Below, in pieces: positions 1,607-19,439 of a DNA stretch of 23,907 nucleotides (positions are counted from its first letter, which is position 1; every line of letters begins with the position of its first letter). The translations under genes and the position numbers were made by a program. A model generated the notes under the pieces. The model ran no database searches. It saw only the letters and a list, made by a program, of their open reading frames with translations, and was not told where the DNA came from. Origin of the DNA: Nanobdellota archaeon (lineage in GTDB: Archaea; Nanobdellota; Nanobdellia; Woesearchaeales; JACPBV01); NCBI GenBank assembly GCA_034660355.1, contig JAYEIZ010000331.1:1-23907 (forward strand), in the 5' to 3' direction.

Positions 1607-1685
1607 TTAACTCCACTCTTTAATCTTAAATTTACATTCTATTAGTTTATATATTTTGTGTTTTTTTAACTCTGAGATAGAAACT

Positions 1686-1693
1686 TTTAAATA
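1686..1693 (+). promoter_or_regulatory. TATA box (TTTAAATA) for the 1716 gene; probably a leaderless transcript
   Basis: Archaeal TTTAWATA consensus 22 nt upstream of the ATG at 1716. No SD in between. Confidence 0.45.
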
Positions 1694-1715
1694 AATTCCT
1701 TTTCTGTTCAGTATT

Positions 1716-2267
1716 ATGGATAAAGTAGTAAAAACAGATATATTATTTGTTCTTTCAGATGTTATAGATATATTAAAGGTTAAAGAAGAACGAGATACTG
1801 TTGATTTGAAAGAGTTAAGTAATCATACCATACATAATGCTTCTATCTTTCAAGATGAAGATAGTGTAAGCATAGCAATACTAATTTATTCTTTGTCTAA
1901 GGTTATTGAAAGAAGAGAGGGAAAACTGAACTATAATTCTTTGTTGAGTCTATTGAAATCAGCGAAAGACAACCTTGAAGCTGGAAAATTCGACATTTAT
2001 AGAAATAATATAGAGAAGATATTTAATTTTATTTCCACAGTGGACTCTAAGTTAGAGCTCTATGTTGAGGAAGTTGTAGGCCAGGCACAGATAAAGAAAA
2101 GTAGCAAGTTGTATGATCATGGGATCTCTTTAGCGAGAGCATCTGAACTTATGGGGGCTTCTCAATGGGATTTAATGTCTTATATTGGGAAAACAACACT
2201 GACTAATCTGGGTGGGGGAGTATCTATTAAAGATAGGCTTAATTATACAAGGAGTTTATTTAGATGA
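1716..2267 (+). CDS. Helical protein with a C-terminal UPF0175/COG2886-like HTH (antitoxin-like) module
   Basis: The C-terminal LYDHGISLARASELMGASQWDLMSYIG resembles the UPF0175 'ISLGKAAELLGMSRWEF' HTH. I do not recognise the ~120-aa N-terminal extension. The stop overlaps the next ATG (ATGA at 2264-2267). Confidence 0.5.
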   Translation: MDKVVKTDILFVLSDVIDILKVKEERDTVDLKELSNHTIHNASIFQDEDSVSIAILIYSLSKVIERREGKLNYNSLLSLLKSAKDNLEAGKFDIYRNNIEKIFNFISTVDSKLELYVEEVVGQAQIKKSSKLYDHGISLARASELMGASQWDLMSYIGKTTLTNLGGGVSIKDRLNYTRSLFR

Positions 2268-2968
2268 AAGCGTTAGTATTTGATACAGGGCCAATCATAA
2301 GCTTAACCTTGAATAATCTTCTTGGGCTCTTAACTAACCTTAAACCCAAATATAAAGGTTATTTTTATATTACTCCTGCAATAAGAGATGAAGTAATAGA
2401 CCGCCCATTAAATTCAAAGAAGTTTAAGTTTGAAGCATTACAAGTTCTAAGAAGCTGGCATAATAATATTCTTGAGGTTTTTGAAGATCCCCAGTTGAAT
2501 AAAAAAACAAATGATTTGATGGACTTAGCAAATCAATGTTTTGAAGCTCGTGGTAATTACATCCATATTGTTCATTTTGCTGAAATCTCAGGAGTAGTTG
2601 CTACTGTAATGACTAAAGCAGAAGCTTTTGTTGTTGATGAAAGGACAACCCGGTTATTAATAGAGCATCCAGAGAGATTAAGAAGTATATTATCAAGAAA
2701 ATTACATACTAGTGTTACTGTAAATAAGAAAAACTTAAGGCAGTTTCTAGACTTTGCAAAGGGAGTAAAGCTAATAAGATCAGCAGAGCTTGTTACAATT
2801 GCATATGAACTGGGTTTACTAGATAAGTATATAGTCAATATACCTAATCCTAAAAAAACACTTTTAGAAGCAGTTCTTTGGGCAGTAAAACTTAATGGTT
2901 GTGCTATTTCAGAAAGAGAAGTGGTTGAGATAATTAAGATGGAAACTAAATCCCAAAGCTTTAAATAA
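2264..2968 (+). CDS. PIN-domain nuclease-like protein (COG2405/DUF3368-like, enlarged)
   Basis: MKALVFDTGPIISL (beta1 Asp), ITPAIRDEV (Glu), HFAEISGVV and AFVVDERTTRLL (Asp), then a C-terminal SAELVTIAYELGLL helix as in COG2405 PIN proteins. Translationally coupled to the HTH gene. Confidence 0.55.
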   Translation: MKALVFDTGPIISLTLNNLLGLLTNLKPKYKGYFYITPAIRDEVIDRPLNSKKFKFEALQVLRSWHNNILEVFEDPQLNKKTNDLMDLANQCFEARGNYIHIVHFAEISGVVATVMTKAEAFVVDERTTRLLIEHPERLRSILSRKLHTSVTVNKKNLRQFLDFAKGVKLIRSAELVTIAYELGLLDKYIVNIPNPKKTLLEAVLWAVKLNGCAISEREVVEIIKMETKSQSFK

Positions 2969-2989
2969 ATTCTTAGATTAACTTTTCAT

Positions 2990-4513
2990 GTGATAAAAGG
3001 CCAAATAATTTCTGGGGAACATGGGAAAATTCTTATTAGGCAGAAAGCAGATTCAGATATAGAACTTGGAGAGCTTCTTGTTACAGAAACAGAAGATTCT
3101 AAGGTTTTACTGCAAGCAGTAAATCTTTTGTATGGTTCGCAATTATCCCAGCAAAACCTAGAGTTGATATCTGGAATGGGTTTAGAGGATAATGATAAAT
3201 TAGAATTTATGGACCCTAAATTAAGGAATTATAATCTGGCTGTGTTGAAGAATTTAATAACAATCAAAGAAAATAATGCAGGAATATCTAAGAAACTGCC
3301 TAGTTTTTTTTCTTCTGTCAAAAGCCTTGAGAAGAAGGACCTTAAATTTCTTACTCAACCAAAAAATCCCTTGTTTCTTGGCAATATCAGGAGCGGAAGT
3401 AAGGTTTTAGATTTTCCAATATATCTAAATGGTGAAGATGCACTTTCTCACCATATATTGGTGCCGGCAACAACTGGCAGGGGCAAATCTAACTTATGTT
3501 CGGTAATTCTATGGGAAGCGACATCTAATGATTATTGTGGTTTTTTGGTGCTGGATCCTCATGATGAATATTACGGCAGAAACAAATTGGGATTAAAAGA
3601 CCATCCTTCCAAAGAAAAAGCAGTATATTATACACCTAACGATGTTCCTCCGGGTGGGAAAACATTAAAGATTAATCTTAAATTAATAAAACCTCAGCAC
3701 TTCAACGGTGTTGTAGATTGGTCAGATCCTCAAACACAAGCACTATATCAATATTATAAGGAATATGGGGGTGAATGGATTGAAGCTATAGTTTTAGATA
3801 AGCCATTAAAAGCAGATTTCTTTGAAGGAACATTATCAGTTGTTAAGAGGAGAATAATGTCACTATTGGATCTAGAACTTACCAATAATCAGCTCTTTTG
3901 CAACGGAATATTTGATTTGCAGGCAGGCGAAACTACTATTGCAGATATATGTAATGAATTAGAGGGAGCAAAGACCGTAATAATAGATACATCAGATTTC
4001 CAAGGCAGTGTTGAAATACTAATAGGGGGCCTAATCACAACTGAAATCTTTTCAAAATATAAGCGATACAAAATGAAAGGTTTGTTGAAAGAAAAACCAG
4101 TCATATCAGTAATATTAGAGGAAGCGCCTCGCGTATTAGGCAAGGATGCATTAGAAAAAGGCCCAAATATATTCTCAACAATAGCAAGAGAAGGAAGAAA
4201 ATTCAAAGTAGGGTTATTTGCAATAACGCAATTACCCTCATTAATCCCAAAACAGATATTAGCTAATATGAATACAAAAATAATCTTAGGTATAGAGATG
4301 CAGCCTGAACGTGATGCAATAATACAAAGTTCAGCTCAGGATCTTTCAGATGATGATAGAAATATTGCTTCTTTGGATAAAGGGGAAGCAATCATTAGCA
4401 GTAATTTTGCAAAGTTTGCAACCCCTATAAAAATCCCATTATTTGAAGACTTTGTTAAACAAGATAAAAAAGAAGATGTTAAGAAGGATTTCTCAGGAGT
4501 AAGTTTGAGCTAG
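2990..4513 (+). CDS. HerA-like FtsK/HerA-superfamily ATPase (DUF87, HAS-barrel + P-loop)
   Basis: Walker [12 protein letters not shown], Walker [31 protein letters not shown] (the HerA 'REGRKyG...SQrP' motif), and an N-terminal barrel-like [15 protein letters not shown]...GELLV. GTG is the only in-frame start after the stop at 2966. Confidence 0.8.
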
Positions 4514-4798
4514 TTATTCTTTTCTTTTGAATATTTTTGCAATTGGAGTGCTCTTTAAATTTATTGTTCCATCATGCCTTACTATTGGAACACCCACTTT
4601 AAGGTGCCTTAGTTTTAATTTATCTTTACCTTTTTTATCCCCTAACTGGATGATGGGCATATCATCCTTTCCGAAATCTTGTGTTAAGCCCACTAATTGC
4701 CTGCAATTAAATGCTCCGCCATGATGGAAAAGCCTTTTGTCAAATGTAACATGAAATAGACTTCCGGATCCTGTTTCGATAATGAACTCTTCTTTCAT
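4514..4798 (-). CDS. Hypothetical 94-aa protein
   Basis: Intact ORF with a BRE/TATA (TTAAATAT at 4830..4823) 24 nt upstream of the ATG. No motif recognised. Confidence 0.45.
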   Translation of the reverse strand: MKEEFIIETGSGSLFHVTFDKRLFHHGGAFNCRQLVGLTQDFGKDDMPIIQLGDKKGKDKLKLRHLKVGVPIVRHDGTINLKSTPIAKIFKRKE

Positions 4799-4894
4799 AA
4801 TAATACTAATTTTCTTAATTGAATATTTAATCTTTTCTGTTTTATTCTCTTTTTATGCGATAATATTATAAATTATCCTAGAATACCTTTTCTC

Positions 4895-6103
4895 ATGAAA
4901 TTTGCTCATCTGGCAGATTGCCACATAGGTGGGTGGCGCGACCCTAAGCTAAAGAATATAGCAGCACAAGCCTTTGAAAAAGCAATAGACTTGTCTTTAG
5001 GTAAAGATGTAGATTTTGTAGTAATTTCTGGAGATTTATTTAATACGTCATTGCCTTCTATTGATGGGCTAAAGCTAGTTGTGAGAAAATTAAAAGAGTT
5101 GAAAGATAATAATGTTCCAGTTTACATGATTGCAGGTTCACATGATTTTTCTCCATCTGGAAAAACAATGCTTGATGTTTTAGAGGGAGCTGGATTAGCT
5201 ATAAATGTAGTTAAAGGAGAAGAGATAGATGGAAAATTAAGGCTAAATTTTACAGTAGATAAGAAGACAGGAGCTAAGATTACTGGGTTACTTGGTAAAA
5301 AAGGTGGGCTAGAGAAAGGATATTATGAAGACTTATTGAAAGAAGAGCTGGAGAATGAAAGCGGTTATAAGATATTCTTATTTCATTCCTTGCTTTCTGA
5401 GCTAAAACCAAAGGAGTTAGAGAAAGTTGATTCTCAACCATTGAGTTTACTTCCTAAGAACTTCAATTACTATGCTGGCGGCCATCCGCATATTGTTACT
5501 GATTCAGCTATAGAAGGTTATGGTACAATAGCTTATCCTGGCCCTTTGTTTCCAAACAACTTCAGAGAACTAGAGACATTGGGTAGTGGCGGTTTTTATA
5601 TTGTTGAAGACAATAAACCAAGATTTGAACCAATACAGATTTATAATACATTTCATATCAAGATTAAAGCAGACCATAAAAATCCTCAAAAGATTACTGA
5701 TGAAATACTTGATGTGATAGATGGCAAGGAATTTAATGATACTATTATTACAATAAGGATAGATGGAACTTTAGAGAGTGGAAAGCCAGCTGATATAGAT
5801 TTTAAAAGAATATTTGAAAGGTTGTATGAGAAGAGCGCTTACTTTGTTATGAAGAACACTACTTCTTTGGTTTCTAAAGAGTTTGAAGAGATAAAGATAG
5901 ATGCTAAGAATGTAGGGGATGTAGAAGAGAAGATAATCAATGAACATCTGGGCAAGATCAAGATTGAGGATTTAAGTGTAGAAAAAGAAAAAGAGTTGAC
6001 TAAAGAATTAATGAATGTTTTATCATCAGAAAGGGGAGATGAGAAGGTAGCTGATTTTGAGAAAAGAATCCAGGAAGATGTTGAGAATATTTTAGGATTA
6101 TAA
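4895..6103 (+). CDS. mre11: Mre11/SbcD-family calcineurin-like metallophosphoesterase
   Basis: Motif I HLADCHIG, II ISGDLFN, III AGSHD (Ser where Mre11/SbcD normally has GNHD), IV LFHS, V GGHPH. The C-terminus is a charged helical tail. Confidence 0.7.
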   Translation: MKFAHLADCHIGGWRDPKLKNIAAQAFEKAIDLSLGKDVDFVVISGDLFNTSLPSIDGLKLVVRKLKELKDNNVPVYMIAGSHDFSPSGKTMLDVLEGAGLAINVVKGEEIDGKLRLNFTVDKKTGAKITGLLGKKGGLEKGYYEDLLKEELENESGYKIFLFHSLLSELKPKELEKVDSQPLSLLPKNFNYYAGGHPHIVTDSAIEGYGTIAYPGPLFPNNFRELETLGSGGFYIVEDNKPRFEPIQIYNTFHIKIKADHKNPQKITDEILDVIDGKEFNDTIITIRIDGTLESGKPADIDFKRIFERLYEKSAYFVMKNTTSLVSKEFEEIKIDAKNVGDVEEKIINEHLGKIKIEDLSVEKEKELTKELMNVLSSERGDEKVADFEKRIQEDVENILGL

Positions 6104-7522
6104 TTTTATTAGATCTTTTAGGATTTCTAGTACTTCTTTAGGGCTTGCTTTGCCTCTGCTTTCTTTCATAACCAAGCCCACAACAAAATTCAAAGCTTTT
6201 TCTTTTCCAGCTTTGAACTCTTCAACAGCTTTTGCGCCTTCTTTTATTGCTTCTTTACAAAGTTTTTCAATCTCTCTACTATCATCCATTAGTTCTAAGC
6301 CTTCTTTCTTAACGTGTTCCTTAATGTCAAATGCTTCTTCAACTAGCTTTTCTATAATCTTTTGTGCAACATTCTCTGTTATTTTCTTATCCTCAATCAA
6401 CTTTAACAAATCAATCAAGTGTATATGCTGGATTTCTGTTTCAGCTAGCTTTTTTTTGTTATAGTTTAATACTCTGGCTAGTTCTCTTCTTACCCATTTT
6501 GCAGCCAGCTCAGGATTTATTGCTGTTGAAACGGCTTCAAACATCTCTGCTAAAGCCTTATCTTTTGAAATTACCTTAGCCATCTCTTCTTTTATTCCGT
6601 GCTTTTTTGTGAATTTCTCTAACTTTTCATGTGCTAACTCGGGCATATTCTTTTTTATCTCACTAACCCATTCTTTTGTTAGCTCAATCTTGACTAAATC
6701 AGGATCCATAATATAACCATAATCTGCTTCAGTCTCCTTTGTTCTTAATGAGAATGTAAGGCCTTTTTCAGAGTCCCAAGCACGTGTTTCTTGCTTTAGC
6801 TTCTTGCCTTCTTCAATATCTCTTTTCTGCCTTATTACTTCGTACTTTAAGGCTCTTTCAATATCCTTAAATCCAGTAATGTTTTTTATTTCACTTCTTA
6901 TATAACCCGATTCTTTTATAGAAACATTAGCATCTGCTTTTATAATACAATTATCAACATCAAATATCTCTAAGTATCCTAATATTGTTATTAATTGATT
7001 CATAAAGTCACGGGCTTCTTCTGGAGAAGTCATATCTGGTTCAGTCACAACTTCCACTAATGGATCGCCGCTTCTATTGTAGTCAACTAAGACAAACTTC
7101 GAATCTCTTATTCCTGCTGGATGAACTAAAGCGGCAGGATCCTCTTCCATGTGTATTCTTACTAAGCCAATCTCTTTACCTTTTTCAAGTTTCATTGCGC
7201 CTTCTGTTGCTAAAGGGACTTCGTATTGAGATATTTGGTAATTCTTTGCCATGTCTGGATAAAAATATGATTTTCTTGAGAATATGAGTTCTGGAGAAAT
7301 TTTAGAGTTAGTTGCTAAAGCTAATTTTATAGCATATTCAACTGCTTTTTTATTTAATACTGGTTTAGAACCTGGATGGCCTAAACAAACTTCACAACAT
7401 CTGGTGTTTGGTTGTTCTCCATCTTCTCCAGCCCGTTTACAGCCACAGAATAGCTTACTTTTAGTAGCTAATTCAACATGGCATTCAATACCTATAACAA
7501 TATCTGATGTGAATTTTTCCAT
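6098..7522 (-). CDS. gatB: Asp/Glu-tRNA(Asn/Gln) amidotransferase subunit B
   Basis: VIGIECHVEL, CEVCLGHPGSKP, DYNRSGDPLVEVVTEPD, and a GatB/YqeY-like tail. I prefer the ATG at 7522 (MEKF...; GAGGT 5 nt upstream) over the track start at 7537. Confidence 0.9.
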   Translation of the reverse strand: MEKFTSDIVIGIECHVELATKSKLFCGCKRAGEDGEQPNTRCCEVCLGHPGSKPVLNKKAVEYAIKLALATNSKISPELIFSRKSYFYPDMAKNYQISQYEVPLATEGAMKLEKGKEIGLVRIHMEEDPAALVHPAGIRDSKFVLVDYNRSGDPLVEVVTEPDMTSPEEARDFMNQLITILGYLEIFDVDNCIIKADANVSIKESGYIRSEIKNITGFKDIERALKYEVIRQKRDIEEGKKLKQETRAWDSEKGLTFSLRTKETEADYGYIMDPDLVKIELTKEWVSEIKKNMPELAHEKLEKFTKKHGIKEEMAKVISKDKALAEMFEAVSTAINPELAAKWVRRELARVLNYNKKKLAETEIQHIHLIDLLKLIEDKKITENVAQKIIEKLVEEAFDIKEHVKKEGLELMDDSREIEKLCKEAIKEGAKAVEEFKAGKEKALNFVVGLVMKESRGKASPKEVLEILKDLIKL

Positions 7523-12261: not shown

Positions 12262-12900
12262 ATGAAATACGATCTTCATATACATACGCATTATTCAGCA
12301 TGCTCTATCTTAAAACCTAAGACAATTTTAAAAGTAGCAAAAAAAGCAGGGCTTGATGGGATAGCGGTTAATGATCACAACACTATCAAAGGAGGAGTGG
12401 TTGTTTCTAAGGAGAATAAAGATAAGGATTTTGAGGTTATTCCTGGAATAGAGTTAGCTACGGATAGAGGCCATCTTTTGGGGTTATATGTTAATGAGGA
12501 AATAAAGTCAAGAGATTTCTTTGAAGCAGTTGATAGTATAAGGAAACAAGGAGGATTAGCAATTATTGCCCACCCTTTTAGAATTGTTCCTCATTTAAGA
12601 TCAAATATCAAGTCTATTGATGTTAAGAAACACTTAGATGCTGTTGAGTGTTATAATGCGAGAACTTCATATTTCGGTAATAAATCTGCTATGAAGTTTG
12701 CAGATAAGTTCGATCTAGCTAAAACTGCCGGTTCAGATGCACATTTTTCATTTGAGATAGGTAGGTGTGTTACTAGATTTGATGGAGATATTACTAATGC
12801 TATAAAGAAACAGAAGACTCAGGTGGAGGGCAGCAATGTAACTGGGCTTTTAGGATCTACTTTCAGTTTTTTTGAAAAACATCTTTTAAGGAGGAGATAA
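12262..12900 (+). CDS. PHP-domain metal-dependent phosphoesterase
   Basis: DLHIHTHYS, DGIAVNDHN, IIAHPF, GSDAH: PHP His/Asp metal ligands. The stop lies 1 nt before the carS ATG. Confidence 0.8.
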   Translation: MKYDLHIHTHYSACSILKPKTILKVAKKAGLDGIAVNDHNTIKGGVVVSKENKDKDFEVIPGIELATDRGHLLGLYVNEEIKSRDFFEAVDSIRKQGGLAIIAHPFRIVPHLRSNIKSIDVKKHLDAVECYNARTSYFGNKSAMKFADKFDLAKTAGSDAHFSFEIGRCVTRFDGDITNAIKKQKTQVEGSNVTGLLGSTFSFFEKHLLRRR

Positions 12901-12901
12901 T

Positions 12902-13441
12902 ATGTGGTTTTTTGTGTTGCAGTGCTTTTATTTTATGCTTCCAGCGTATTTTGCAAATATGGCTCCAGTTATAGCTAAGAATTGGTTGAAGTTTTTAGCG
13001 GTTCCTGTTGATTTTGGAAAGAAGGCAGGGGATAGAGAGATATTTGGAAGAAACAAGACATTTAGGGGCTTTGTTTTTGCAGTATTGTTTGCAATATTGG
13101 TAACTTATGCCCAGCTCTTTTTATACAGATTTGATTATTTTAGAAGTCTTAGCTTTGTTAGTTATTCAAATTGGATTTTGTTGGGTTTTTTATTTGGTTT
13201 TGGAGCTCTTTTTGGAGATTTAGCTGAAAGTTTTGTTAAAAGAAGGCTTAGGATAAAATCAGGACAGAAGTTTTTTCCTTGGGATCAGCTTGATTTTGTT
13301 ATTGGCGCTTTGATCTTTGTCAGTATTTTAGTTGACCTAACTTTAAGTTGGATATTAGTTGTTATACTTATCAGCTTTATAGGCCACATTTTAGTAAATC
13401 ACTGTGCATATTACCTAAAGATAAGAAAAGAAAAATGGTAA
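12902..13441 (+). CDS. carS: CDP-archaeol synthase (CDP-2,3-bis-O-geranylgeranyl-sn-glycerol synthase)
   Basis: It aligns by eye along its whole length to A. fulgidus CarS: MLPAYFANMAPV, PVDFGK...FGRNKTFRGF, GALFGDLAESFVKRR, DQLDF, and the C-terminal YYLKIRKEKW. GGAGGAG SD upstream. Confidence 0.85.
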   Translation: MWFFVLQCFYFMLPAYFANMAPVIAKNWLKFLAVPVDFGKKAGDREIFGRNKTFRGFVFAVLFAILVTYAQLFLYRFDYFRSLSFVSYSNWILLGFLFGFGALFGDLAESFVKRRLRIKSGQKFFPWDQLDFVIGALIFVSILVDLTLSWILVVILISFIGHILVNHCAYYLKIRKEKW

Positions 13442-14052
13442 CCTTGATAATATTATTCTCTATTTTGTCGTTATTTGTATTATTTCTTATATTTTATAAG
13501 TTCATCTTTTTAAGAGATCCAAAAAGAGAGTATCTTGAGGGTGATAATATAGTTGCTCCTGCAGATGGAAAGATAATAAATATTATGAATATTGATAAGA
13601 AAAATGTTAGAATAAGAAAAGGATTTTTAGGGAAGGTAAATACTCTTTGTTCTGATGTTATAACAGAAGGGTATTTGATATCTATTTTTATGTCTGTATT
13701 TGATGTGCATGTTAATAGAGCACCTATTGATGGAGAAATTTTATCTGTTAAGCATAAGAAAGGAAAGTTCTTTATGGCTTTTGATATTGAAAAGAGCTTT
13801 CTTAATGAAAGCAACGAAATTATTCTAAAAACAAAAATAGGAAAGATAAAGGTAATACAGATAGCTGGTTTTTTAGCTAGGAGGATACAGTCTTTTGTTA
13901 AGCCGAAGCAAAAGGTTAATAAAGCTGAGAGGATAGGCAGGATAGTATTGGGAAGCCAAGTAAGCTTAATACTTCCTAAGAATGTTAGATTATTGGTAAA
14001 TGTGGGGGATAGGGTTAAAGCTGGAGAGACTTTAATCGCAAAAAATGTTTAG
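13435..14052 (+). CDS. psd: Phosphatidyl/archaetidyl-serine decarboxylase proenzyme
   Basis: FLRDPKRE, APADGKI, FMSVFDVHVNRAPIDG, and a self-cleavage-type LGS near the C-terminus. I chose the ATG at 13435 (the ATGGTAA overlap with the carS stop) rather than 13348, which lies inside carS. Confidence 0.8.
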   Translation: MVTLIILFSILSLFVLFLIFYKFIFLRDPKREYLEGDNIVAPADGKIINIMNIDKKNVRIRKGFLGKVNTLCSDVITEGYLISIFMSVFDVHVNRAPIDGEILSVKHKKGKFFMAFDIEKSFLNESNEIILKTKIGKIKVIQIAGFLARRIQSFVKPKQKVNKAERIGRIVLGSQVSLILPKNVRLLVNVGDRVKAGETLIAKNV

Positions 14053-17830: not shown

Positions 17831-17855
17831 ATCTTGTATTATATTTGTTAATGGT

Positions 17856-17869
17856 TATATTAACCTTTC
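17856..17869 (-). promoter_or_regulatory. BRE/TATA promoter (GAAAGG TTAATATA) for rnp4
   Basis: Reverse complement of 17856-17869, 25 nt upstream of the ATG at 17830. It is nearly identical to the 17477-17490 element. Confidence 0.5.
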
Positions 17870-17943
17870 TTTTTGATTATTATGTAAAAAATGTTTTACA
17901 AAATAGAAAAGTTTATATTCTAAATGTATATTATACTTTACAT

Positions 17944-18141
17944 ATGTATGCAAATAGTATAATGAAATATAGGAGATTATTGAAATTGAGGCAATCAGAC
18001 TTAGCAGAAGACCTAGGTGTTACTAGGCAGACTATAAATGCAATCGAGAATGGGAAGTACCTTCCTAATATGGAGTTAGCTTTTAGATTAGCAAAGGCAT
18101 TTAACTGTAATATTGAAGATATATTTTACATAAACAAATAG
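17944..18141 (+). CDS. XRE-family helix-turn-helix transcriptional regulator (COG1476-like)
   Basis: LRQSDLAEDLGVTRQTINAIENGKYLPNMELAFRLAKAFNCNIEDIF is a classic Cro/CI HTH. The start is ambiguous: ATG 17944 or 17962, and each lies ~25 nt from a TATA-like box. The TTG start at 17845 in the track reads through promoter DNA. Confidence 0.8.
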   Translation: MYANSIMKYRRLLKLRQSDLAEDLGVTRQTINAIENGKYLPNMELAFRLAKAFNCNIEDIFYINK

Positions 18142-18173: not shown

Positions 18174-19439
18174 ATGTTTAACTTTCTTAAGAGGCTGTTT
18201 TTTGAGCAGGAGAAACCAAAGGTAGTAGAGAAAGAGGAGATTGAACCAGATAATCTGGAGAATTGGTTTCAACATAAAACTAATAAGGTGTATAGTGACT
18301 TAGATGTAAGTGTTAAGAAGCTAAAAGGTAACATAGAAGAGAATGTTCTAAAAACAAAAGATAATCTAGCTTTGTTAGGCACAGCAAAACTTCATAATCC
18401 TAAGATAAGTGTTAGGGAAAAGCAATTTATGGAAGGCAATAGGAAGGCATATATTCTTGGAGTTAATAATTTCTTAAGATCAGTTAGGTTAGAGGAAAAA
18501 GAATATCTAAAATTGCTGGAATTATGTTCTGATTTTGGTCTTAAATTGGATAAATTTAGTAAATCAACTGCGCGCCCATATCATATCTTACAGGAATTTT
18601 TTGCTAATGAGAGCAAGAACATAGCAATCAACATAAAAAATCTAGAATCTTCAATCAAGGGGCTTGAAAGTAGTATAAAGAATACACATATAGATCAGAT
18701 AGATAAGACCAAAGAAGAGATAATCAGCTTGAACAATAAAATAAAACAAAAAAAGGATCTTGATAATTTATTAGGGGAGAAGGGTAAGATTAAGGAAGGA
18801 TTAATCAAAAATAAGGAAGAAATCAGCAATAAACTAAGTGAGTTACTTAAAAGCAAAGAATATGCCCATCTTAATGATTTGAAAGCTAATAAAGAGGTCT
18901 TTTTAGCTAGTATAAGGGAGCATAATACGAAGGTAATTCATGCTTTTTCTGTTATGGAAAAGCCATTGAAGAAGATGGTTCGAGTTGTTTTAGAGGATGC
19001 TAATCTGTTAGAGGAATATATGAAAGATTCTGTTAATGCTTTAATAAAGGATTCTAATCTGAAGATAATCGGCTTATTAGTTAAATTGAAAAACAACATT
19101 AATAATTATACTTTGGAACTTAAGGATAAGAAAAGAGAAAAGGTTCTTGAAACAATTAGCGGGTTAACAGAGGAATTTCTTAGGGAGTTTATCAACAAGC
19201 ATAAAGAACTAAATGAGAAGTTAGAGAATATAGAAACAGAGATTGATACAAATGGGTCTCTTAAAGAGGAGAATAAACTTAATTATGAATTGAGTAATGT
19301 TAATGATAATCTTGAAAAAGTGGGTGATGAGATCAATAATAATCATAAAGAGTTAGGTAAGATAGATATAAAAGAAATGAAACATAGTTTACAAAAAGAA
19401 ATGAACAATTTGTTGAAGGCAGAGATTGTTATTTCTTGA
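18174..19439 (+). CDS. Hypothetical 421-aa K/E/N-rich coiled-coil protein
   Basis: Long intact ORF with heptad-like helical sequence throughout and no enzymatic motif. Short internal peptide repeat LESSIKGLESSIK. Confidence 0.6.
   Translation: MFNFLKRLFFEQEKPKVVEKEEIEPDNLENWFQHKTNKVYSDLDVSVKKLKGNIEENVLKTKDNLALLGTAKLHNPKISVREKQFMEGNRKAYILGVNNFLRSVRLEEKEYLKLLELCSDFGLKLDKFSKSTARPYHILQEFFANESKNIAINIKNLESSIKGLESSIKNTHIDQIDKTKEEIISLNNKIKQKKDLDNLLGEKGKIKEGLIKNKEEISNKLSELLKSKEYAHLNDLKANKEVFLASIREHNTKVIHAFSVMEKPLKKMVRVVLEDANLLEEYMKDSVNALIKDSNLKIIGLLVKLKNNINNYTLELKDKKREKVLETISGLTEEFLREFINKHKELNEKLENIETEIDTNGSLKEENKLNYELSNVNDNLEKVGDEINNNHKELGKIDIKEMKHSLQKEMNNLLKAEIVIS

Follow-up and report, generated by a model that had tools for sequence, protein, structure and literature searches.

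The stretch of DNA analysed here, called the window below, comprises positions 1 to 23,907, essentially the full length, of contig JAYEIZ010000331.1 from a metagenome-assembled Nanobdellota archaeon (DPANN) of the Woesearchaeales (assembly GCA_034660355.1). Between positions 1716 and 4513 it carries three open reading frames (ORFs) in a row. The first (1716-2267, +) encodes a protein of 183 amino acids (aa), P1. The second (2264-2968, +) encodes a 234-aa protein, P2, predicted to be a VapC-type PIN-domain nuclease. The third (2990-4513, +) has a GTG start and encodes a 507-aa ATPase of the HerA family. A preliminary description of this DNA took the three genes for a module in which an antitoxin-like helix-turn-helix (HTH) protein gates a PIN-HerA pairing, and suggested that it might be an analogue of HerA-NurA end resection or of anti-phage systems. 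That three-gene set overlooked a fourth gene (4895-6103, +), which encodes a 402-aa Mre11-like metallophosphoesterase and is the steadier partner of HerA. We think it probable that the region consists of two adjacent units, P1-P2 and HerA-Mre11, and is not one three-gene system.

The basic observations in the preliminary description hold. The three ORFs are co-directional, and re-reading the coordinates and junctions gives the same picture. The stop codon of P1 and the start codon of P2 share the sequence ATGA at 2264-2267. The TAA of P2 ends at 2968, and the GTG of HerA follows at 2990 after exactly 21 nt. The motifs that had been quoted are all found in the translations: TGRGKS, ILEEA and REGRKF...TQLPS in the ATPase, and FDTGP, AIRDEV and VVDERT in P2. 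The NCBI proteins U9O94_11265 (P1) and U9O94_11270 (P2) are 100% identical to the window proteins. Databases hold 661 homologues of P1 and 1294 of P2, with a mean column identity in sampled alignments of 72% and 62%, respectively, so that both proteins lie beyond what chance would produce.

How tightly are P1 and P2 bound to each other? A scan that took a single genome for each species turned up relatives in 387 species-representative genomes. The 80 best loci come from 80 different assemblies, all of them Woesearchaeota/Nanoarchaeota-type metagenome-assembled genomes (MAGs). For comparison we used a set of 89 related loci, of which 88 were eligible for counting the order of P1 and 87 for counting the junction. 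In 86/88 loci P2 has P1 directly upstream, and the 4-nt overlap is kept in 71/87. The two proteins also occur as one. Fusion-sized proteins of about 400-430 aa, with P2 homology at residues ~185-410, make up 22 of the 150 best representatives at 50% identity. Their N-terminal half is clearly P1-like in all six that were read, with linkers of differing length. Judged by sequence, these are natural P1-P2 fusions. No relatives were found in IMG/VR viral contigs, plasmids or phages. The conservation, the fusions and the lack of relatives on mobile elements argue that P1-P2 is a stable two-subunit enzyme inherited vertically, not a mobile toxin with a labile antitoxin. The pair is likely to be core to Nanoarchaeia, where it is apparently single-copy.

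Many of the GTDB records that carry the locus are titled 'uncultured Methanosarcinales archaeon' (binchicken/SRP co-assembly MAGs; loci L006-L011, L017, L021 and others). The locus in these MAGs is of Woesearchaeota type, with 50-65% protein identity and unchanged synteny. The titles look like placeholders or wrong taxonomy.

P1 consists of two parts. Its AlphaFold2 (AF2) model is all-helical, with nine helices and a predicted local distance difference test score (pLDDT) of 75. An N-terminal helical domain of ~125 aa is followed by a UPF0175-like HTH at about aa 128-160. The N-terminal domain carries the invariant motif ELSNHTIHNASIFQDEDS. A fold search with P1 returned generic helical bundles only, with no meaningful match, and none of the 661 P1 homologues carries a Pfam annotation. 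The C-terminus is matched, below threshold, by the Pfam family PF03683 (UPF0175). Such matches occur in 44 of 47 members of the P1 family, the best at 3.6e-4 and 20.6 bits; the C-terminus of the window protein scores 12.5 bits (E = 0.12), short of the gathering score of 27.9 bits. All the matches inspected fall on the same C-terminal HTH segment, in distant orthologues as well. P1 evidently resembles UPF0175 but does not qualify as a member. UPF0175 proteins have been found exclusively with PIN proteins of the COG2405/DUF3368 type (Matelska et al. 2017, PMC5499597).

The fold of P2 is clearer. An AF2 model built from a 52-sequence alignment reached a pLDDT of 91 and a predicted template modelling score (pTM) of 0.85, and it has the alpha/beta/alpha arrangement of a PIN domain. 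When this model was compared with the PDB by Foldseek, the top-ranked matches were almost all VapC/PIN proteins (3zvk, 5x3t, 1y82, 9h6a and others). The best of them have a probability of ~1.0 and a target TM-score of 0.6-0.68. No NurA structure is among the PDB matches listed. Model and matches together show that P2 is a PIN protein, as had been proposed, and not the NurA-type RNase-H-like nuclease that would have made this an ordinary HerA-NurA pair. Compared with a minimal PIN domain, the P2 model has an extra helical insertion of ~40 aa (~127-168) and a C-terminal helical extension (~196-233).

The conserved residues of P2 point to an enzyme. The motifs FDTGP, AIRDEV and VVDERT hold D7, E43 and D125/E126, all of which are invariant in the family alignment, as is R172. 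Position 175, in an RSxE motif, is E or D in every sequence inspected, down to 29-33% identity, and D7, E43 and D125 are unchanged at that level too. In the model, D7 comes after strand 1, helix 38-49 contains E43, and D125 comes after the strand at 121-123. Active VapC enzymes have a D-E-D-E/D pattern, and the residues of P2 fit it. D7, E43, D125 and E175 are the predicted catalytic residues, and we predict that P2 works as a Mg2+-dependent PIN endonuclease. Nuclease activity for P2 and, for P1, the part of a stable targeting subunit are suggested jointly by the conservation of residues, by translational coupling and by the fusions.

Which PIN family does P2 come from? Precomputed annotations place PF11848 (DUF3368) on most P2 homologues, usually flagged as weak or faint; one such annotation is unflagged (E <=1e-5). 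Using the current Pfam copy, PF11848 gave no match at E <=1 for P2 or for 59 relatives. The PF11848 model may since have been altered or retired. Run singly and as profiles against Pfam, NCBIfam, PADLOC and PDB sequences, P1 and P2 gave no match above threshold. The assignment of P2 to COG2405 thus draws on the precomputed weak PF11848 matches plus the fold. The earlier label for the pair, a UPF0175-like HTH with a COG2405-like PIN, stands as a statement of ancestry; as threshold-level membership of PF03683 and PF11848 it does not.

The 507-aa ATPase belongs, on sequence grounds, to the HerA family. It matches the Pfam domain DUF87 ('Helicase HerA central domain') at 9e-25 and the Sulfolobus HerA structure 4d2i at 4.8e-24. 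Its Walker A motif is TGRGKS and its Walker B motif ILEEA. The NCBIfam models HerA_Thermprot (1.2e-28) and helicase_HerA (2.2e-26) also match, both far under their equivalog cut-offs; the best canonical score is 99.8 bits against a cut-off of 800. The preliminary description had credited the protein with all HerA hallmarks. This is right for the Walker motifs, for REGRKF...TQLPS and for the matches to DUF87 and 4d2i; the HAS-barrel is matched only weakly (Pfam, E = 0.065). One orthologue, in locus L001 (9920-13534), is 1204 aa long and carries an intein, with Intein_splicing and LAGLIDADG domains. In locus L040 (~12822-13787) the best tblastn match to HerA covers residues 167-489 only, starting beside Walker A, so that the gene may be interrupted.

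The product of the fourth gene matches Pfam Metallophos at 1.2e-13 and NCBIfam Mre11_Pyroc at 3e-31 over residues 1-386, scoring 108.7 bits where the cut-off is 600. The gene has its own TATA-like box (~4860-4875) and no adjacent Rad50 gene in the window. In 8/31 loci HerA and Mre11 overlap or abut (gap <=13 nt). Because the genes overlap or abut in many relatives, we take them for a canonical herA-mre11 pair. A 94-aa ORF (4514-4798, -) is wedged between them in the window. It has no match in Pfam, NCBIfam or PADLOC and no tblastn homologue in the 89 related loci, and is either an orphan gene or spurious.

Promoter-like elements also separate the two units. A 14-mer resembling a B recognition element and TATA box (BRE/TATA), TTTTAAATAAATTC, lies at 1685-1698 (+), 17 nt before the ATG of P1. 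A second, CTTTAAATAAATTC, lies at 2959-2972 (+), overlapping the stop codon of P2 and ending 17 nt before the GTG of HerA. Near-identical 14-mers of the form (T/C)TTTAAATAAATTC have only these two copies in the window, where 0.13 are expected, and two copies were reached in 1 of 100 shuffles. The distance of the first element from the ATG suggests a leaderless or near-leaderless P1-P2 transcript. The second, at the same distance from the GTG, indicates that HerA has its own promoter also where it sits directly against P2; P1-P2 and herA in the window may also be read through. Most related loci have an A-rich stretch followed by TTTA(A/T)ATA at a similar distance from the P1 start. An equivalent TATA element precedes HerA in the window and in loci L001, L004-L006, L008-L010, L040 and L044; others have a TATA element with GGGTGG.

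We considered the shared 14-mer as a signal for specific co-regulation of P1 and HerA and rejected this as unproven, as it fits a generic consensus. The two copies are most likely the strong BRE/TATA consensus of the clade. No convincing operator palindromes were seen upstream of P1, and the window contains no Rfam families or tRNAs. A scan of the window for bacterial-type promoters and terminators was uninformative for an archaeon.

We propose the following explanation. P1-P2 would descend from a toxin-antitoxin (TA)-like family made up of a COG2405 PIN protein and a UPF0175 HTH protein. In Nanoarchaeia (Woesearchaeota and their relatives) it would have become a vertically inherited housekeeping pair. 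P1 and P2 would form a complex in which P1 is a stable partner and not a labile antitoxin, its HTH and lineage-specific helical domain providing nucleic-acid targeting or regulation. HerA and Mre11 would be a housekeeping DNA-end-processing pair with their own promoters. The two units would be neighbours through conserved synteny in Woesearchaeales. On balance we favour this reading: P1-P2 as a domesticated nuclease of PIN type whose HTH/helical partner is obligate, separable from the adjacent housekeeping herA-mre11.

The proximity of HerA invites a different answer, in which the PIN protein stands in for NurA. P1-P2 would then partner HerA (and Mre11) in end resection in Woesearchaeales, a PIN dimer docking on the HerA hexamer and the HTH of P1 helping to engage DNA. 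We consider this unlikely. Its evolutionary form, that a domesticated TA-type PIN/HTH pair displaced NurA non-orthologously in Woesearchaeales and docks on the HerA hexamer, seems to us if anything a little more doubtful. The same strand and the 21-nt gap in the window speak for a partnership, and a PIN domain combined with a hexameric ATPase does exist in archaeal repair (PINA, discussed below). The wider comparison is less favourable. Across loci, the gap between P2 and HerA has a median of 1147 nt and is <=200 nt in 16/54. The genes that often intervene are unrelated: a CorA transporter, a TrmB-like regulator and two HATPase_c_3 genes. In locus L024 the CorA-family Mg2+ transporter (5477-6643; Pfam 1e-24) occupies the P2-HerA interval and runs into the end of P2. 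A P2-HerA gap of 1.1-1.5 kb is seen in about 20 further loci, which may hold a CorA gene too; L024 is the one that was checked.

A census of downstream genes makes the point more directly. Among 37 non-redundant loci with >=9 kb after P2, HerA is found downstream of P2 in 22 and Mre11 in 24. GatB, which is functionally unrelated, is there in 17. Since GatB is kept nearly as often as HerA, conserved synteny alone can explain the co-location. P1-P2 has no nearby HerA in 15/37 loci. Mre11 is kept near P2 with HerA absent in nine loci; we looked for a divergent ATPase hidden between P2 and Mre11 in the loci that lack HerA, and there was none. In five distant lineages, in which P2 is 29-38% identical, P1-P2 is intact, with no HerA or Mre11 within 10 kb. 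VapC-type PINs, moreover, are typically RNases, which does not favour a role in resection. With this spacing, a promoter before HerA, and HerA absent from the distant lineages, the genes do not behave as a three-gene module. Of the co-conservation that the preliminary description called for, about half is found: P1 and P2 are always kept together; HerA accompanies them only loosely, and in one clade.

The distant lineages have a neighbour of their own. A gene for an XPD-type helicase (DEAD_2/Helicase_C_2) is found in 5/5 upstream of the pair, on the other strand and in four of them within ~1.3 kb (L084 7019-8938; L085 6312-8198; L087 6936-8825; L088 7506-9365; L086 163-2055). This is another repair helicase, and to that extent it suits the idea of a resection partner. 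Its position beside P1-P2 could reflect a functional tie or only synteny. The recurrent neighbours, HerA/Mre11 in one clade and XPD in others, are the sole basis on which a role of P1-P2 in DNA metabolism is suggested.

Several observations weigh against our preferred reading. In loci L013, L021, L028, L051 and L069, HerA lies within 10 nt of P2 and has no visible promoter, and the sequence upstream of HerA is P2 coding sequence. One of them, L069, is a tight P1-P2-HerA-Mre11 array. From these tight loci it would follow that some lineages express P1-P2 and HerA as one operon. The five are the best evidence for a functional tie, yet the genomes are very compact; in L069, Mre11 also abuts the convergent GatB gene. 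Pfam scans of the window ORFs found neither Rad50 nor NurA, and no NurA (PF09376) is among the Pfam-annotated HerA neighbours in the nine loci listed, a survey of neighbourhoods only. With no NurA beside it in the annotated loci, HerA may need another nuclease partner. The remaining two points concern ancestry. The N-terminal domain of P1 has no recognisable relatives in sequence or fold searches, and the link of P2 to COG2405/PF11848 was not reproduced with the current Pfam or by a sequence search of the PDB. We also considered a 421-aa ORF (18174-19439, +) as a possible NurA and rejected it. It encodes a coiled-coil protein, rich in K and E, that has no match in Pfam or the PDB, and it adjoins an HTH_3 regulator (17845-18141).

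Could P1-P2 instead act on RNA? It might, as is the case for other domesticated PIN proteins, be a lineage-specific nuclease for processing or turnover of tRNA, rRNA or mRNA, untied to HerA, Mre11 or XPD. The nearest folds of P2 are VapC RNases, and the Foldseek matches in the PDB also include the eukaryotic RNA-decay and rRNA-processing PINs Nmd4, SMG5/6, Utp23 and Utp24. A core, vertically inherited pair suits such a function, and the neighbours at distant loci include the ribosomal proteins S17e and L16 as well as Alba. Even so, the neighbours that recur are DNA-repair genes in two separate contexts, and the partner P1 carries an HTH of the DNA-binding type. We judge a housekeeping RNase of this kind improbable.

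The preliminary description saw in the locus a possible anti-phage analogue with an antitoxin-like gate. As a classical type II TA pair, or a HerA-based anti-virus defence, P1 would gate the P2 toxin, with HerA as the sensor or activator. The arrangement has some appeal. An HTH gene upstream of an overlapping PIN gene, together with the ancestry, matches the predicted COG2405/UPF0175 TA pairs, and HerA gives partial matches to the HerA models of PADLOC, up to 85 bits. Type II TA genes are small, adjacent and co-transcribed, and so, to judge from the ATGA overlap, are P1 and P2. Such systems are also patchy, mobile and often multi-copy, with a labile antitoxin, and P1-P2 shows none of this. The natural fusions and the vertical, apparently single-copy inheritance fit an antitoxin-like gate poorly, as does the conserved core synteny. 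P1 and P2 have no match in PADLOC. The NCBIfam anti-phage HerA models score the ATPase at 38.6 and 28.6 bits, against 99.8 for canonical HerA and a HerA_antiphage cut-off of 800, and this HerA pairs with Mre11. A classical TA pair or a HerA-based defence system is highly improbable.

The surroundings bear on the same question. The other genes of the window are housekeeping genes, which leaves the defence reading unsupported. They encode GatC, GatA, GatB, a cyclophilin, a radical-SAM protein, CDP-archaeol synthase, phosphatidylserine decarboxylase, a CDP-alcohol transferase, RpiB, a NUDIX protein, Rpp21, PGK and an H+-pyrophosphatase. On the minus strand lies a complete ArvABC/OapABC operon: OapC (177-569), OapB (571-960) and OapA/ArvA, a small Arf-like GTPase (974-1606). 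The operon and P1 diverge from a spacer of 109 nt, and 31/58 related loci keep the operon upstream of P1-P2. In Haloferax, the ArvA GTPase drives the formation of extracellular vesicles (PMC10927574). In locus L089 (7294-9360) ArvA is 688 aa long and bears an intein. Locus L088 joins ArvABC, NUDIX and XPD to P1-P2.

Our searches of the literature, on PIN-HerA pairings, on NurA in Woesearchaeota and DPANN and on DUF3368, found no description of the P1-P2 pair. There is nothing new in HerA-Mre11; the family of P1-P2 has not been characterised and, in the literature searched, has not been described. Because the pair is kept so consistently across a large uncultivated DPANN class with highly reduced genomes, it likely matters to these cells. 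Should P1-P2 prove to act together with HerA/Mre11 or XPD, the pair would reveal how these archaea process DNA ends with no NurA adjacent. Otherwise the locus is a caution that tight spacing in compact, syntenic genomes does not equal a functional module.

How does the locus compare with known systems? Among thermophilic archaea, the genes herA and nurA share an operon with rad50 and mre11 (Haloferax review, PMC7776575). Here, too, HerA is followed by an Mre11-like gene, often overlapping, with a nuclease gene nearby. Unlike that cluster, the window lacks Rad50 and NurA, and its HerA and Mre11 both fall far short of the NCBIfam equivalog cut-offs. The nuclease close by is of PIN fold, not NurA fold; the nuclease genes lie upstream of herA and are loosely linked to it. 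The anti-phage systems Sir2-HerA and DUF4297-HerA resemble the locus in that a HerA-family ATPase adjoins a gene for a candidate effector enzyme. They differ from it in effector family, and the locus differs from them in its housekeeping context, its vertical inheritance, its low scores with anti-phage HerA models, and its lack of PADLOC matches for P1 and P2 and of relatives on mobile elements.

PINA, an archaeal Holliday-junction helicase of PIN-ATPase-KH architecture (PDB 5yww, 5f4h; PMC6061704), likewise brings a PIN domain and a hexameric ATPase together in archaeal DNA repair. It is among the fold matches of P2, at ranks 42 and 49, and the match is weak (TM ~0.3). PINA is, however, a single polypeptide with a non-HerA ATPase, whereas the genes here are separate and loosely linked.

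The closest comparison is with the COG2405 PIN and UPF0175 (PF03683, COG2886) HTH proteins, a predicted type II TA pair (Matelska et al. 2017, PMC5499597, citing Makarova et al. for the role of UPF0175). Like these pairs, P1-P2 has an HTH gene upstream of, overlapping and on the same strand as a gene for a protein of VapC-type fold with conserved acidic residues, and homologues of both proteins give weak matches to the respective families. Unlike them, P1 has its extra ~125-aa helical domain and P2 its ~40-aa insertion and C-terminal extension, and neither protein reaches the Pfam threshold. Unlike mobile TA loci, P1-P2 is inherited vertically through a whole archaeal class, within core synteny and sometimes as a fused protein. 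The pair seems a clear example of a TA-type PIN/HTH module that has turned into a stable, sometimes fused, housekeeping enzyme.

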